From an uncultured Gemmatimonadales bacterium (GTDB lineage Bacteria > Gemmatimonadota > Gemmatimonadetes > Longimicrobiales > RSA9), in NCBI GenBank assembly GCA_963708135.1, contig OY970192.1, forward strand, positions 704,001 through 768,000: a stretch of 64,000 bases of DNA, in the 5' to 3' direction. Position numbers: made by a program. Positions 36,001 through 42,000 of the stretch are shown here, in pieces (within the stretch, counting starts at the first letter, position 1; each line of letters begins with the position of its first letter).

Positions 36001-39000
36001 CCAGTCGCCGCGGCGACGGCCGGCCTGGTAGTCGGCGATGGTGCCGACGAGGGGATCGTCGCCGGCGGCGCGGGGCGGCCGATCGGAGCCAGGGCCGACA
36101 TCGGGGTCGGCGGACGGATCGGCGCCGGCCGCGACGCCGGAGTGCGGCAGCCGTGGCAGCACGGCGAGGGCGGCGAGCCGGGCCAGGACTTCACGTCGGG
36201 TCGGAGACATCTCGCGGGCGGGTCGGGGTGAGCTCAGCGCGGCGGGTGGCCGGTCACGCTGAAGTTGGTGGACGGCTGCGCCGGCGTCTCGCGGCGGGCG
36301 CTCAGGCAGAGCCACGCGGCCGGCGCGGCCTCGGCCGGCGGGACGACGGCGAACCTGATCGCGCGCAGCTCGAGGATCCGGAGCGTCGGCTCGAGCGCCT
36401 CGACCACCTCGCGGGCCGAGCGGCGGGGCGGCCCGGTCTCCCGTGGGCCGCCTTCGGTCGAGCCGATGAGGCTGAGCCAGGCACCGTCGGCAGCGAGCAC
36501 GTCAGCGACGCGCCGGGCGAACGCGGCGCGCTCCGTCGCCTGATCGAAGGTGTGGAAGCAGCCGCGGTCGAAGACGAGGTCGAACGGCGGCTCATCGAGC
36601 GTATCCTCGAGGAAATCGGCGGCGGCGAAGCGGCACGCGACGCCCGCGCGGTCGCGGCGCTCCTCGGCGCGCGCGATCGCCGCCGGCGACACGTCGAGGC
36701 CCAGCACGTCCGCGCCCTGGCGCGCGAGCCAGACGGAGTTCGTGCCCGTGCCGCAGCCGACCTCCAGCACGCGCGGACCGCCCACCCGGCCGCTCCGCCA
36801 TAGCTCGACCAGGTGGCGGTCGGGCTCGCCGGTATCCCAGGGAAGCGCCTCGCCCGACGTGTACCGCTCGTTCCAGTGAGAATCGTCCATGGCGCCACAA
36901 TACGAGGACGAAGGGTTCGCCGCGAGGGGACCGCGTCGATGCGCAGCCTGTTGCCTCACCTGCGCGCGGCCCGATGCCGGGCTGTGTCCGTCGGGCCCGA
37001 TGCGCTGTCGTGGCGCTGATCCTCGCGTTGGGCTCCGGCGCAGGGGTACACGCCGCGCAGGCGAAGGTCCAGGCGCAGGTGGCGCGATACCCGGGTCGCG
37101 TGGTGGGCGCGTGCAGCGTGAACCCGCTGGGCCGGGGCGCACGGGACGCTCGGGCGGGGTCGCCCGGGCGGGCCGAGGGACGCGTGTGGGCCGGGCGGCG
37201 CCGTGGGCGGGAGGCAGCGCGCGCACCGGGTCGGACGGTGTCGCGGGCGGACCAAACTCCCAGATCGCCGAAGGGGCCGAAGCGCCCTTGCAGAAATGGC
37301 CGCTATGCGGACCAAAGTCCCGTCGCGCTGGTGATGGCGGCGAACGCGAGGGGACTTTGGTCCGCTCGGCGGCCCAAACTGCGAGAGGGCTGCCGAGGGG
37401 GCGACGATCGTGCAGAAAGGTCCGGGCGCCGCCTAAGGCAGCGACGCGACCGCTCCGCTCCCCCTGCGCGGCCGAGGGCCCCATCCACGAAATCTCGTCC
37501 CATCCCGCCATGGAACTGTCCCATCCCGCCATGGAGCTGCCCCGTCTCGCCATGGAGCTGCCCCAGACGGCGACGCAGGGTAGACGCGTGGTGGGCTGTG
37601 GCAGGCACGAGGAGGGGCACCGGAGCGAGGATACTCTCCATGGACACGGAACTGGAGCGTCGCCTGTGGGAGCTGGCAGCGCGGCAGCACGGGGTAGTGG
37701 CTCGCGGGCAGATGCTGGAGCTCGGCATGCGACCGGGCGCGATCGGACGGCGGGCGCGGCGCGGCGGGCTGCGTCGCCTGCACAGGGGTGTGTACCAGGT
37801 GGGGCCGGTGCTTGCGCCGTCGGGGCGGCTGCTCGCCGCGACGCTGGCGTGCGGTCGACAGGGGATCGTGGCCGACTGGAGCGCCGCCGTCGTCTGGCGC
37901 GTGCGCGAAGGGTCCGACGGCGAGCCCGTCCACATCCTGCTCGTGGGCGGCGGCGGGCGGAGCCGCCCGGGGATCCGGGTGCGACGCGTCCGCCGGCTCG
38001 ACCCCGACGAGCGCACGTGCGTGGACGGCATTCCCGTGACGACGCCGGCGCGGACCCTGCTCGACCTCGCCGCGGTCGCCGGGGCGGGCGAGCTGGAGCG
38101 CGCCGTCGCCAGGGCCGAGCGTGAGCGGCTCGTGAGCCGCGACCAGCTGCGGGCGATGCTGCTTCGGGGCGCCGGCCGGCCGGGAGCGCCGGCGCTCAGG
38201 GCCCTGCTGTCGCAGGCCGGCGGCCCGGCGCTGACGCGCTCGGAGGCGGAGGCGCTGTTCCTGAAGCTGATCCGGGAAGCGTCGCTGCCGCTCCCCGAGA
38301 CGAACGTGGTCGTCGGCGGCTACGAGCTCGACTTCCTCTGGCGCAAGCAGCGGATCGCCGTCGAGGTGGACGGCTACCGCTACCACGGCACGCGACGTCG
38401 CTTCGAGGCCGACCGTCGCCGCGCGACCCGCCTGGCGGCGCTCGGGATCCAGGTCATCCCGGTCACGTACCGGCAGATCGTCGAGCAGAGAACCGCGACG
38501 GCCGTGCAGATCGGGAATGCGCTGCTGCGGGCGGAGCTGCGGTGAACGGAGAACGCGGGGTGGAGGGGGGCGGACCGGCGCGGACCGGAGCCGACCGGAG
38601 GGACGCCGCGGGGAGGACCGGGCCGTGCGGCGTCGCGAAGCGGGCCGGGGCCGACCGGAGCGGACCGGAGCCGACCGGAGGGACGCCGCGGGGAGGACCG
38701 GGCCGTGCGGCGTCGCGAAGCGGGCCGGGGCCGACCGGAGCGGACCGGAGCCGAACGGAGGGACGCCGCGGGGAGGACCGGGCCGTGCGGCGTCGCGAAG
38801 CGGGCCGGGACACGTGGCGGAGCCGGATCGAAGGCGTCGCGGGGCGGACCAAACTCCCACATCGTCGAGGCGCGCGCGGCGCGGCCGCAGAAGTGGCCGC
38901 TATGCGGACCAAAGTCCCCTCGCGTTCGCCGCCACAACCGGCGCGAGGGGACTTTGGTCCGCATAGCGGCCTAAACTGCGAGAGGGCTGCCGAGGGGGCG

Positions 39001-42000
39001 ACGATCGTGCAGAAAGGTCCGGGCGCGGCCGCCTCGACGTGCCCAGGCGACGGCTCGCGGCGGGCCAGCCGTGGATGGACCGGCCCCCGCGGATGGACCG
39101 GCCGCCGCGGATGCACCGGCCAGCGGCGGATCCACCGGCCGGCCGCGGATCCACCGGCCGGCCGCGGATCCACCGGCCGGTCGCGGATGCACCGGCCGAC
39201 CGCGGATGCACCGGCCGCGCGCGGATGCGGCCGCCACGGCGGCTCGCGCCTTCCTCACCGTCCCTCACCCGCCGCGTAGCCGCCGGCCAGATCCCGATAC
39301 GCCCGCACCAGCTCCAGGAACCCGTGCCGGTAGCCGTCCCCGTCCTCGCCCAGACCCGCCCGGGCGAGGGCCAGCACCTGGTCGGCGGTGATGGAGCCGC
39401 GGTGCTCGGAGTGGCGGAGCAGCATGCCGAAGCCGGCGACGGCGGCGGCGAAGCGGAAGTCGGCGGACGGCCGCCCCGGCGCGGCGGCGACGCGGGAGCC
39501 CGAGCCGACGCGGGAGCCCGAGCCGACGCGGGAGCCCGAGCCGACGCGGGAGCCCGAGCCGCCCCCGGGAAACTCCACCGAGCCGTCCCGCGACGCCTCG
39601 CCCGCGACGTCGCGGATGCCGCGCGTCATGAGGCGGCTCGTCGTCCCGTGCGGCGCCTTGTAGCGCACCTTCACGAACGCCAGCTCGCGGCCGCCGCTCG
39701 GGTCGGCGAGGCGGCCGGGGGCGCGGTAGCGGAGCGGGTCCACCGGCGCGGGAACCGCGGTGGAGTCGGGGCAGGCGGCGTCGCGCCCGGAGGCGGCGTC
39801 GTGCCCGGAGGCGGAATCGCGCCCGGAGGCGGCGTCGTGCCCGGAGGCGGAATCGCGCCCGGAGGCCGCGTCGCGCCCCGCGGCCGCGTCGTGGCCGCAG
39901 GCCACATCGTCGCCGGAGGCGCCATCGTCGCCTGAGAGGGTGAGCTCGTAGAGCGCCGTCACGGTGTGCCCGGCGCCGAGCTCCCCCGCGTCCTTCCTGT
40001 CGTTGTTGAAGTCCTCCGGCGCGAGCAGGCGGTCCTCGTAGCCGAGCAGGCGATAGCTCCGCACGCGCGCGGGGTTGAACTCGACCTGGACCTTCACGTC
40101 CTTCGCGACGGTGACGAGCGTCGCGCCCATCTGGGCGACGAGGACCTTACGGGCTTCCTGCAGGCCGTCGATGTAGGCGTAGTTGCCGTTCCCGTACCTG
40201 GCGAGCTGCTCCATCTTCTCGTTCTGCAGGTTGCCGGTGCCGAAGCCGAGGACGGTCAGGAAGGTGCCGCCTTCGCGCTCCCGCTCGATGAGGCGGACCA
40301 TGGCGGCATCGCTCGACTCGCCGACGTTGAAATCGCCGTCGGTGGCGAGGATGACGCGGTTGTTGCCGCGGGGGTCGAAGCTCCTCCGCGCCACCTCGTA
40401 GGCCAGCCGCAGCCCCTCGCCGCCAGCGGTCGAGCCGCCCGCCTGCAGACGCTCGATAGCCTCCATGATGAGGTCCTTCCGGTCGCCGGGGGTGGGCCCC
40501 AGGACGAGGCCGGCCGCGCCCGCGTAGACGACGATGGCCACGCGGTCCACGGCCCGGAGCTGCGCGACGAGCAGCCGCAGCGACGCCTTCACCAGCGGCA
40601 GCTTGTCGGGCTCGTCCATGGAGCCGGAGACGTCGAGCAGGAAGACCAGGTTGGCGGGCGGCAGGTCGCTCGTGGCGATCGGGCGGCTGGCCAAGCCGAT
40701 GCGGAGCAGCCGGTGCTTCGGCGTCCAGGGCGCGCGGCCCACCTCGGTGGTGATGGCCACCGGGTCGTCGCCTCGCGGGGTCGGGTAGTCGTACGGGAAG
40801 TAGTTGACCAGCTCCTCGATGCGCACGGCGTCGACGGGCGGCAGCCGATGCTCGCGCAGCAGGAAGCGACGCACGTTGCTGTACGAGGCGGGGTCCACGT
40901 CGATCGCGAAGGTCGAGAGCGGGTGGTCGGCGACGGCGCGGAAGCCGTTCTCCTCGATGTGCCCGTACTGCTCGCGGTCCACTGGCGGCCGGTACCAACC
41001 CGCCGCGTCCCGGCGCACGCCGCCCGTTGCCGTCTGCGCGTACATCGGTGAAGGCGACGGCGCGGCCGCGACCGCCCGTCCCGCCGCCGACATCGCCGCG
41101 TCCGTCACCACCAGCTCGTTGAGCGACACCGTCGTCTGCCGGAGCCGGAAATCGGCGGTCACGGAATCCGCCGCCGCGCCGGACGGCACCCGCACCACCA
41201 GGCGCGCCTCGTTGTAGCCGAGCAGCGTCGCCACCAGCGTGAGCCGGCCCGAGGCGACGTCGCCGCGCGGCACCTCCAGCGCGTACCGCCCGCCCGCGTC
41301 CGAGAGCGCGCCGGCGCGGGTGCCGGCGACGTGGATCTGCGCCCCCGCGAGCGGGCTGCCGTCACTCGCGCGGACGACCCGCCCGCTCACGCGCACCGCC
41401 TCGCCCGCGGGCCGGGCGAGGGCGAGGGAGGTGGCGGCGAGAAGGGCGGCCAGGGGGAGGGAGAGGATCGAGCGTCGGGTGCGTCGCATGGGGTCCTCCT
41501 CGCGTGCTCGGGATGTGCGCAGGCGGCCGGGCAGCCGGGCGTCCGGTCTCGAGCGGTACGACGAACGAGGAGGGAGGATTTGCACGCGGGGGGAACCGGG
41601 GCTCCTGCGGCTGAGGCCCGGCGACGATCAGGTCGACAAGGCAGCGGGGCCGCCACGGAGCCGGCTCAGCCCGGCGAGGTCAGGAACGCGGCGGCGTGCT
41701 CGGTGGCCCACTCGCGGAACGTCCGCGCGGGGGTGCCGGTGACCTGCTCGATGGTGTGCGTGACGTAGGCGGGCTGCCCGAGCGCGGCGCCCCACGCCCC
41801 CAGCAGCATGCCGGCGACGGCGGGCGGCATGCCCAGCCCGGTCAGCGCCTCCTCGGGCGACATCTCCTCGAAGCGCAGCGTCGTCCGCCCGATGACCTCG
41901 CCGATCGTGCGCACCTGCGCCGCCTGGGTCAGGGAGGCGGGTCCGGTGAGCACGTAGTCGGCACCGGCGTGGGCGTCGTCCGAGAGCGCGCGCACGGCGA

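Follow-up and report, generated by a model that had tools for sequence, protein, structure and literature searches.

What connects a nuclease gene with the two long repeats that lie on either side of it? We have analyzed a 64,000-nt stretch of the genome of an uncultured Gemmatimonadales soil bacterium (contig OY970192.1, positions 704,001 to 768,000; hereafter the window), in which a gene that we call A is flanked by two direct repeats of ~190 nt. The genome-wide survey's note had set the element at 37040-39140, which we revise to ~37245-39030, and had offered two readings: a nuclease with cognate repeats as in REP/RAYT systems, or an element that leaves solo terminal repeats. The features of the locus are summarized in Table 1. 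Of all copies, the left repeat most resembles the right one (80%; the runner-up reaches 77%), and 17 intergenic copies of the same family occur beyond these two. The neighboring genes encode a methyltransferase and a VWA protein.

Table 1. Features of the gene A locus and nearby repeat copies (window coordinates).
Feature	Position	Strand	Description
Gene-free family-A copy	20667-20846	-	between convergent genes
Gene-free family-A copy	27022-27200	-	
Left family-A repeat	37245-37433	+	three 60-62-bp units, six alternating half-sites
Half-sites of the left repeat	forward 37249, 37309, 37371; reverse ~37290, 37351, 37412		
Promoter-like motif	37495-37578	+	three tandem 21-nt copies, CCATCCNGCCATGG-N4-GCCCC type
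Gene A	37640-38545	+	301 aa; AbiEi (wHTH + C-terminal domain) fused to Vsr/DUF559 nuclease domain
Tandem 80-bp units (three)	38554-38809	+	between gene A and right repeat; local tandem duplication
Right family-A repeat	38842-39030	+	direct orientation relative to left copy
19-bp tandem minisatellite	39085-39236	+	past right repeat

The N-terminal ~190 amino acids of protein A match AbiEi by profile (1e-26). Pfam places AbiEi_4 at residues 8-54, a weak AbiEi_1 match at 118-147 and DUF559/MTES_1575 at 220-293. Structure comparison places the fold with those of AbiEi, Rv2827c and the I-Bth0305I catalytic domain, with TM = 0.82-0.84 on the target for the C-terminal part. The protein has the antitoxin fold of a wHTH plus C-terminal domain, by both profile and fold, together with a Vsr-like catalytic domain containing conserved acidic and histidine residues. 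E204, D231, E242, D244, H249 and D258 are invariant across 114 homologues, and we infer that these map onto the EDxHD motif. A sequence search of the PDB gave best matches of only E = 0.43 and 0.87, NCBIfam gave no real match, and a predicted dimer scored 0.04, which allows no verdict. The genes are under purifying selection, with dN/dS = 0.2-0.46 across 10 pairs. Clustered at 50% identity, the family comprises 23,135 groups; although DUF559 and AbiEi-DUF559 proteins abound, hardly any role is known to have been assigned to them.

Searching with tblastn gives exactly seven paralogues in the genome (A to G), the number reported earlier, with pairwise identities of 40-58%. All are free-standing between other genes. 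Profile searches, which return larger families than blastn, gave 119 non-redundant repeat copies, distributed as 19 for A, 29 for B, 13 for C, 23 for D, 28 for E and 7 for F. The genome contains no repeat family for G, which carries an internal TGA; the only broken gene is the only paralogue without a family. A read-through codon common to G and the relatives L044 and L016 was rejected, since the stops listed for the relatives are terminal.

A repeat copy lies within 600 nt of six of the seven paralogues, and on both sides of four. The families were seeded from the flanks of the paralogues, so that this count is circular; comparison of left with right flanks provides a non-circular control. 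The flanks are alike by 82.3% over 209 nt for A, 76% over 210 nt for B, 67% over 334 nt for C and 89% over 352 nt for D, reproducing the values in the survey's note. Of 322 genes with a gap of at least 250 nt on each side, 13 have a left-right match of at least 100 nt; four of the 13 are AbiEi-DUF559 nuclease genes, and five others appear transposase-like by eye. The repeats had also been described as intergenic, and no full-length profile match lies 50% or more inside genes called with a home-made gene caller. The claim that the families barely overlap is correct at the level of blastn. At the profile level it fails, with 27 of 28 matches in common to D and F and six to B and C. D-F (58%) and B-C (57%) are the closest protein pairs, and each pair shares a repeat superfamily. 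One repeat family per paralogue is only approximately true. In de novo repeat clustering, D and E fell into one group with low-complexity DNA.

All six families share one architecture. Each repeat comprises three units of 60-62 bp made of alternating inverted half-sites, ~180 bp overall. The best lag is 60-62 in 6/6 families, the symmetry axes are ~30.5 nt apart, and the families have a common skeleton AA-N37-41-TT-N17-19-AA. A rigid genome-wide scan for this architecture ranks E and C well and A, B and D weakly, and ordinary tandem repeats also score. The geometry resembles that of the operators bound by the AbiEi family: the Rv2827c operator is arranged 23-13-23-4 bp, a 63-bp period (PMC7319586), and the AbiE operator 23-3-23 (PMC3985639). 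The unit length also matches the ~60-bp footprint of the I-Bth0305I dimer (PMC3239194).

Could the repeats instead act in folded form, as structured RNA or as hairpins of single-stranded DNA, such as terminators, guides or REP-type substrates? Stable hairpins are predicted, and both repeats at gene A fold better than 200 of 200 shuffled sequences (z = -4.1 and -9.1). Repeat copies are also enriched in the gaps between convergent genes (32 of 104, compared with 127 of 1167 others). Yet the covariation term is 0.04, with a double change in only two of 22 pairs. G-T and A-C mismatches about the central axis are 15:10, 15:14, 10:10 and 8:7, with three to five compensatory changes, and the excess of G-T that RNAalifold had seemed to show disappears once the pairs are chosen by symmetry. 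In family A an AAA/AAA opposition is conserved although unpaired, the copies have no preferred orientation relative to neighboring genes, and Rfam matches fall far below the gathering score. We therefore regard a hairpin function as most improbable. Given that both hairpin covariation and strand bias are absent, the repeats are probably binding arrays in double-stranded DNA. A CRISPR array, with identical repeats and unique spacers, was rejected, as the loop sequences are homologous between dispersed copies. A genuine CRISPR with a 61-bp period exists elsewhere in the genome, and is unlike the nuclease repeats in form.

The type of repeat follows the protein clade across genomes. Profile A matches only the flanks of L031 and L046, the two relatives in the A clade (support 99), and profiles D and F match only L026, their clade mate (support 99), on a quick tree with SH-aLRT support alone. 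For these clades, this contradicts the earlier remark that protein kinship is not mirrored in the flanks. Tracking is not exclusive for E, whose profile matches three of eight E-clade loci, but also L005, L025, L027, L033 and L060 outside the clade and L058, a locus absent from the tree. Neither L002 (flank cut short) nor L007, the clade mates of B and C, gave a profile match. Ten of 15 family genomes with the gene contain E-type repeats, compared with none of nine without a gene match (Fisher p = 0.002, where kin are not independent). The genome of the closest homologue of A has seven places with A-type repeats, one adjoining the gene. Flank repeats recur elsewhere in five of six other genomes tested; the trimer flanking the gene in genome G042 has no further copy by blastn. 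Twelve of 93 flanks of relatives score at least 10 (nine with a period of 60-62), compared with one of 150 controls (none at 60-62); the other 81 fall below 10.

The arrangement resembles that of REP/REPIN sequences with RAYTs (REPtrons) and of TIRYT/TIRtrons, in which families of extragenic palindromes flank the gene for a cognate enzyme. It shares with REP/RAYT the absence of near-identical gene copies, and the nuclease gene has no match in plasmid and phage collections. Several repeat-specific pairs coexist in one genome, as described for REP/RAYT (PMC3733652). The likeness is of arrangement only. The enzyme is AbiEi plus Vsr/PD-(D/E)XK rather than an HUH tyrosine transposase, no Y1_Tnp or RAYT being found in protein A (Pfam) or in the genome, and its repeat is built of three 61-bp pairs, ~180 bp in all. 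No sign of selection for a single-stranded hairpin is seen. The tag expected at a REP end is GTAG or CGTC. GTAG near the repeat end is absent from A (0/19), B (0/29), C (0/13) and F (0/7), and occurs in two of 23 copies of D and five of 28 of E. CGTC is present there in 17-69% of copies, a figure with no computed background, and GGAG occurs in 27 of 28 E copies as part of the half-site. Unlike RAYTs, which are reported to keep their genomic place (10.1101/2021.07.10.451892), the nuclease genes seem not to lie in conserved neighborhoods, in a comparison with relatives from other genera whose background synteny is poor.

Two other systems share parts of this one. AbiE type IV toxin-antitoxins have the AbiEi N-terminus and the operator geometry of tandem 23-bp inverted pairs. 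Here, however, a nuclease is fused to the AbiEi part, and most of the ~119 arrays lie far from a nuclease gene or downstream of it; no AbiEii/DUF1814 toxin (PF08843) was matched in the 97.65% complete genome, and the neighbors of gene A are those given above. I-Bth0305I, other EDxHD homing endonucleases and Vsr share the C-terminal fold, the conserved residues and, for the footprint, the unit length. Yet the nuclease genes are not within an intron or intein, DNA binding falls to AbiEi, and the cognate sequence is dispersed and beside the gene rather than an intron-less allele.

We consider it somewhat better than even (probability about 0.55) that an AbiEi-Vsr nuclease here runs a system like REP/RAYT but outside the REP/RAYT family proper. 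Support for the cognate pairing that the survey's note proposed is stronger than it claimed. The enzyme is not of the HUH class. Each repeat would consist of three inverted pairs that resemble AbiE operators, as the geometry and the co-variation with the protein suggest. The AbiEi part of each nuclease would bind its own repeat as duplex DNA, and the Vsr-like domain, with its intact active site, may nick or cut at the array. The gene is probably expressed from the motif shared with recA and ssb when single-stranded DNA is abundant. Since we know of no strand-transfer chemistry for a Vsr-type hydrolase, copying of the array would need host repair; break repair might occasionally copy it to new intergenic sites or amplify it in tandem. 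Tandem repeats are commoner where copies sit (33 of 44 gaps of 700-1500 nt, compared with 37 of 177). More rarely gene and repeat could have moved together. Enzyme and repeat sequence would drift jointly, so that several largely separate pairs could exist in one genome. Counting against this reading are orphan repeat families, the few loci of relatives with alike flanks on both sides, and the lack of target duplication and of near-identical dispersed pairs. More tentatively, this may be mobility without a transposase or recombinase, in which an antitoxin-derived binder with a Vsr nuclease propagates its own operator arrays, is switched on with recA and ssb, and diversifies into pairs of fixed 61-bp geometry.

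The nuclease might bind the arrays without spreading them. They would then be operators, or landing pads for chromosome organization or repair. Host recombination, or an enzyme other than the nuclease, would spread them, and the nuclease domain would act elsewhere, for example on mismatches or incoming DNA. The operator-like geometry, the purifying selection and the motif shared with recA and ssb are all consistent with this, and a Caulobacter DUF559 protein has been proposed to be a T:G repair nickase (PMC12907096). There are also no very young dispersed copies; no pair is near-identical, and the best non-tandem pairs are 86-93% alike. But an operator would have nothing to control in the favored convergent gaps, repeat families turn over along with gene clades, and the genome has no Y1 transposase. 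We think this account unlikely. Mere hitch-hiking, in which the genes insert where intergenic DNA is rich in repeats and the repeats are moved by something unrelated, such as an IS91 transposase, is very improbable given the tracking of repeat type with clade across genera, the absence of E-type repeats from all nine genomes without a gene match, and the four nucleases among 13 self-flanked genes. It would accommodate the four IS91-type transposases of this genome and the orphan repeats: an unassigned trimer lies at contig position 1998662, and genome G004, which lacks an A-clade gene, has four A-like copies, none of them within 1.5 kb of a nuclease gene.

On the solo-repeat reading the locus is a composite element bounded by long direct repeats, and the dispersed copies are what remained after the gene recombined out. 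The flanks of A (80%) and D (93%) are indeed mutual nearest copies, and those of A, B and D are in direct orientation. Neighbors of homologues are not syntenic, in a comparison limited to other genera with poor background synteny, and two actinomycete homologues lie between rpoC and rpsL (named by eye). Against this, E and F have a repeat on one side only, the flanks of C match best in inverted orientation, and those of B are not sisters. Alike flanks on both sides occur for four of seven genes here but only three of 31 loci in relatives, and no target duplication of 3-8 nt exceeds permutation. The motif upstream of the gene is essentially never found next to gene-free copies. Moreover, ~110 past insertions would be required, yet the closest paralogues are only 58% identical. 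This reading is weak, and we judge it quite improbable. In relatives, 13 VWA-gene loci have no nuclease gene or repeat within ~1.5 kb, and their other neighbors differ too. Among sequencing reads, a single soil run shared 24% of words; no joint between the two repeats was listed for its contigs, which are pieces of 150-400 nt, and no RNA run was among those listed. Replichore orientation was skewed for E alone (19 of 26 copies; p = 0.029, with no correction for the four families examined), and not for A, B or D.

In the literature searched, mainly the main texts of freely accessible papers, we found no description of DUF559 genes with cognate repeats. The common trimer geometry, the duplex-array reading, the clade tracking and the motif shared with recA and ssb are new here. 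With several matched protein-DNA pairs in one genome, including related and unrelated partners, specificity could be examined in one cross-binding test. If the nuclease does spread the arrays, REP-like repeat populations could arise in a second way, by another chemistry, and a module for toxin-antitoxin autoregulation would have become a selfish replicator. So large a protein family would then offer a natural library of binders and nickases, each matched to its own long site.

The nuclease genes share this promoter-like upstream motif with recA, two ssb genes, recQ, an integrase, a ComM-like ATPase and IS91 transposases, of which the genome has four. It is not a LexA box, being absent upstream of three LexA-like genes, and its spacing, judged by eye, does not fit a sigma-54 promoter. 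The motif hints that these bacteria have a recA/ssb/pilus regulon not described before.

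Gene A, one of seven AbiEi-DUF559 paralogues (A to G; pairwise identity 40-58%) in the studied genome (G000), is bracketed by two direct repeats with 82% likeness. In its protein, AbiEi_4 is the N-terminal domain and DUF559 the C-terminal one. PADLOC AbiEi profiles align to residues 4-180 (1e-26), and the predicted structure model (pLDDT 94) matches AbiEi (6y8q), Rv2827c (1zel) and the catalytic domain of I-Bth0305I (3r3p). The catalytic residues are intact, with E204, D231, E242, D244, H249 and D258 invariant across 114 homologues, and purifying selection acts on the nuclease genes (dN/dS 0.2-0.46, with dS near saturation). 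Vsr and DUF559 are placed in one group (PMC3424549), and a role as repair nickase is proposed for one DUF559 member (PMC12907096). Among the named homologues, the closest are from Gemmatimonadota. The neighbors of gene A encode a methyltransferase on one side and a VWA protein on the other; the VWA gene has in-frame 18-bp tandem expansions (window 39488-39564 and 39737-39954). No AbiEii match was found in the studied genome. This is not an AbiE system, nor is it an intron homing endonuclease.

Positions of gene A, its bracketing repeats and the promoter-like motif
Feature	Sequence	Position	Remark
Left family-A direct repeat	window	37245-37433	
AbiEi-DUF559 gene A	window	37640-38545	301 aa
Right family-A direct repeat	window	38842-39030	
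Motif sites	G000 contig	e.g. 858729 (recA), 3505557 and 4645581 (ssb), 975598, 954010, 4547598, 3066785	~60 in total

Iterated profiles seeded on the paralogue flanks gave 119 non-redundant repeat copies, in families A (19), B (29), C (13), D (23), E (28) and F (7). None lies mostly within a gene called by our home-made gene caller. Paralogue G has an internal TGA, and the profile seeded on it finds itself only. The D and F profiles have 27/28 hits in common, and B and C have six; D-F (58%) and B-C (57%) are also the two closest protein pairs. One repeat superfamily is present on both sides of 4/7 nuclease genes, compared with 7/3990 of all genes (these four counted in). Since that count was seeded on the flanks, a separate test was run on all wide-gap genes; 13 of the 322 with wide gaps on both sides have alike flanks, and four of the 13 are these nucleases. 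The copies favor convergent gaps (32/104 vs 127/1167). B/C or D/F repeats lie on both sides of two genes for ABC permeases and one resembling Fic (names by eye; G000 contig 214325-219736 and 5303023-5304150), and these could be passengers. Another gene (3231046-3231906) has 363-nt direct repeat flanks (88%) that match 17 loci of an unrelated family.

Full-length copies are about 180 nt in A, B, D, E and F, while C forms tandem runs. Although their sequences are unrelated, all six families have a best internal lag of 60-62, with ~30.5 nt between symmetry axes. The array comprises three units, each with a forward half-site, a variable loop and a reverse half-site, and the dominant spacings in all six families are TT-N17-19-AA and AA-N37-41-TT. 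A sequence-free geometry score, applied to flanks of at least 220 nt, was ≥10 in 12/93 flanks of relatives' genes, nine of them with period 60-62 (one, L062, being supplied by the unpublished genomes G015 and G016, which are included in the 93 flanks, the protein tree and the motif counts). Control flanks from the studied genome gave 1/150, and none at period 60-62. Among the 14 relatives' flanks scoring ≥3 at 60-62, TT-N19-AA occurs in eight and AA-N38-TT in ten, against ~1.8 for shuffles. The AbiEi target is 23-3-23-bp inverted repeats bound by one monomer each (PMC3985639), and that of Rv2827c is a tandem of two such inverted pairs, each 23-13-23, separated by 4 bp (PMC7319586), from which we sum a period of 63 bp. 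Dimeric I-Bth0305I protects ~60 bp and cuts at the center (PMC3239194). In the repeats, compensatory changes are few and there is no excess of G-T over A-C, so that sequence rather than pairing appears to be conserved; the repeats would be double-stranded binding arrays. A lone three-times-61 array, of a type unassigned to the seven genes, lies ~1.2 kb downstream of a lexA gene (G000 contig 1998662-1998840). A CRISPR array (3644150-3644520) also has a 61-bp period, probably by coincidence.

Repeat type follows protein clade in part of the family. A quick tree of 50 proteins, with fragments below 230 query residues excluded, places A beside relatives' loci L031 and L046 (support 99); it joins D and F to L026 (99). 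L031 and L046 have the only flanks matched by the A profile, and L026 is the only one for D and F; the flanks of the B and C clade mates have no profile match. The E profile is looser in tracking clade at flank level. The E model matched 10/15 family genomes with a nuclease gene (two of the ten being G015 and G016), including all six with an E-clade gene, and 0/9 family genomes without a nuclease match. The L031 genome has seven A-type places, one adjoining a nuclease gene. Among 40 relatives the A model matched G012 and G004 only. G012 has three weak places and an A-clade gene that is frameshifted as assembled; G004 has an orphan, dispersed trimer family of the same skeleton, with four A-model places (L078, L081, L084 and L087), all more than 1.5 kb from any nuclease gene. 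Flank repeats were found again elsewhere in G004 (six other contigs), G041, G009, G018 and G012 (one place), while that of G042 did not recur in its genome. G009 has two nuclease paralogues with 77% DNA identity and a common upstream repeat. Two-sided flank likeness is rare among relatives (3/31).

An asymmetric 36-nt promoter-like motif lies upstream of 7/7 nuclease genes. Retraining the matrix on 37 other sites, which were picked with the first matrix so that the procedure is partly circular, gave scores >10 bits upstream of 29/38 relatives' nuclease genes, downstream of 1/36, and upstream of 72/3990 genes in the studied genome. Elsewhere, 43/61 strong sites are intergenic and directed at the next gene. 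In a list of 20 hand-picked downstream genes, three without family, are RecA, two SSB, RecQ, a Mg-chelatase-like ATPase, UPF0102 and a type II/IV secretion ATPase (the last three of which we take to be ComM, YraN and PilB), together with an integrase, an IS91 transposase, two Uma2 nucleases and a restriction methylase. Over all its sites the motif, often ~50 nt ahead of the start, also precedes pilus-type genes, IS91 transposases, 3/4 Uma2 genes and 4/6 four-helix-bundle genes. It is absent upstream of LexA-like genes, and the set is not LexA-autoregulated. These genes may form a competence or DNA-stress regulon.

The most likely reading, with a probability of about 0.55, combines binding of the arrays by their own proteins, Vsr-like cutting and spread of the arrays by host repair. 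The AbiEi part of each protein would bind that protein's own array, the Vsr-like domain would nick or cut at it once the recA-linked promoter is active, and repair by the host would occasionally copy or amplify the array, and rarely the gene too. The gene-repeat pairing, the geometry and the intact catalytic residues are observed, and binding, cutting and copying are inferred from them. The repeats could instead be bound by their proteins without nuclease-driven spreading, which we think rather unlikely. It is more doubtful again that the dispersed copies are solo terminal repeats of elements. Hitch-hiking seems improbable, and function of the repeats as RNA or a hairpin is the least probable alternative and a very slight one.

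No target duplication and no very young dispersed repeat pair were found. Neighbors of the homologues are unshared, except in one close pair of actinomycete genomes and for ubiquitous permease paralogues, and the nuclease genes have no match in 72,556 plasmids and 50,697 phages. In that actinomycete pair (L033 and L038) the nuclease gene has rpoC on one side and rpsL on the other (names by eye), two genes that are adjacent in the studied genome; this placement accounts for 2/15 loci with matches on both sides.

REP/RAYT (10.1101/2021.07.10.451892, 10.1101/119735, PMC3733652) is alike in arrangement, but the present system differs in its enzyme and in the end tag and is not a member. The studied genome has no Y1/RAYT transposase. 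Our literature search found no description of DUF559 genes linked to cognate repeats. This case adds several protein-repeat pairs in one genome and their tracking across genomes, a constant three-times-61 geometry linked with AbiEi operators, and the common promoter-like motif.

Tandem repeats are enriched in copy-holding gaps relative to other gaps (13/39 vs 51/262, 33/44 vs 37/177 and 9/9 vs 19/83, with 1/9 vs 66/648 in the shortest gap class) and at 11/14 nuclease gene flanks; gap length may bias this comparison.
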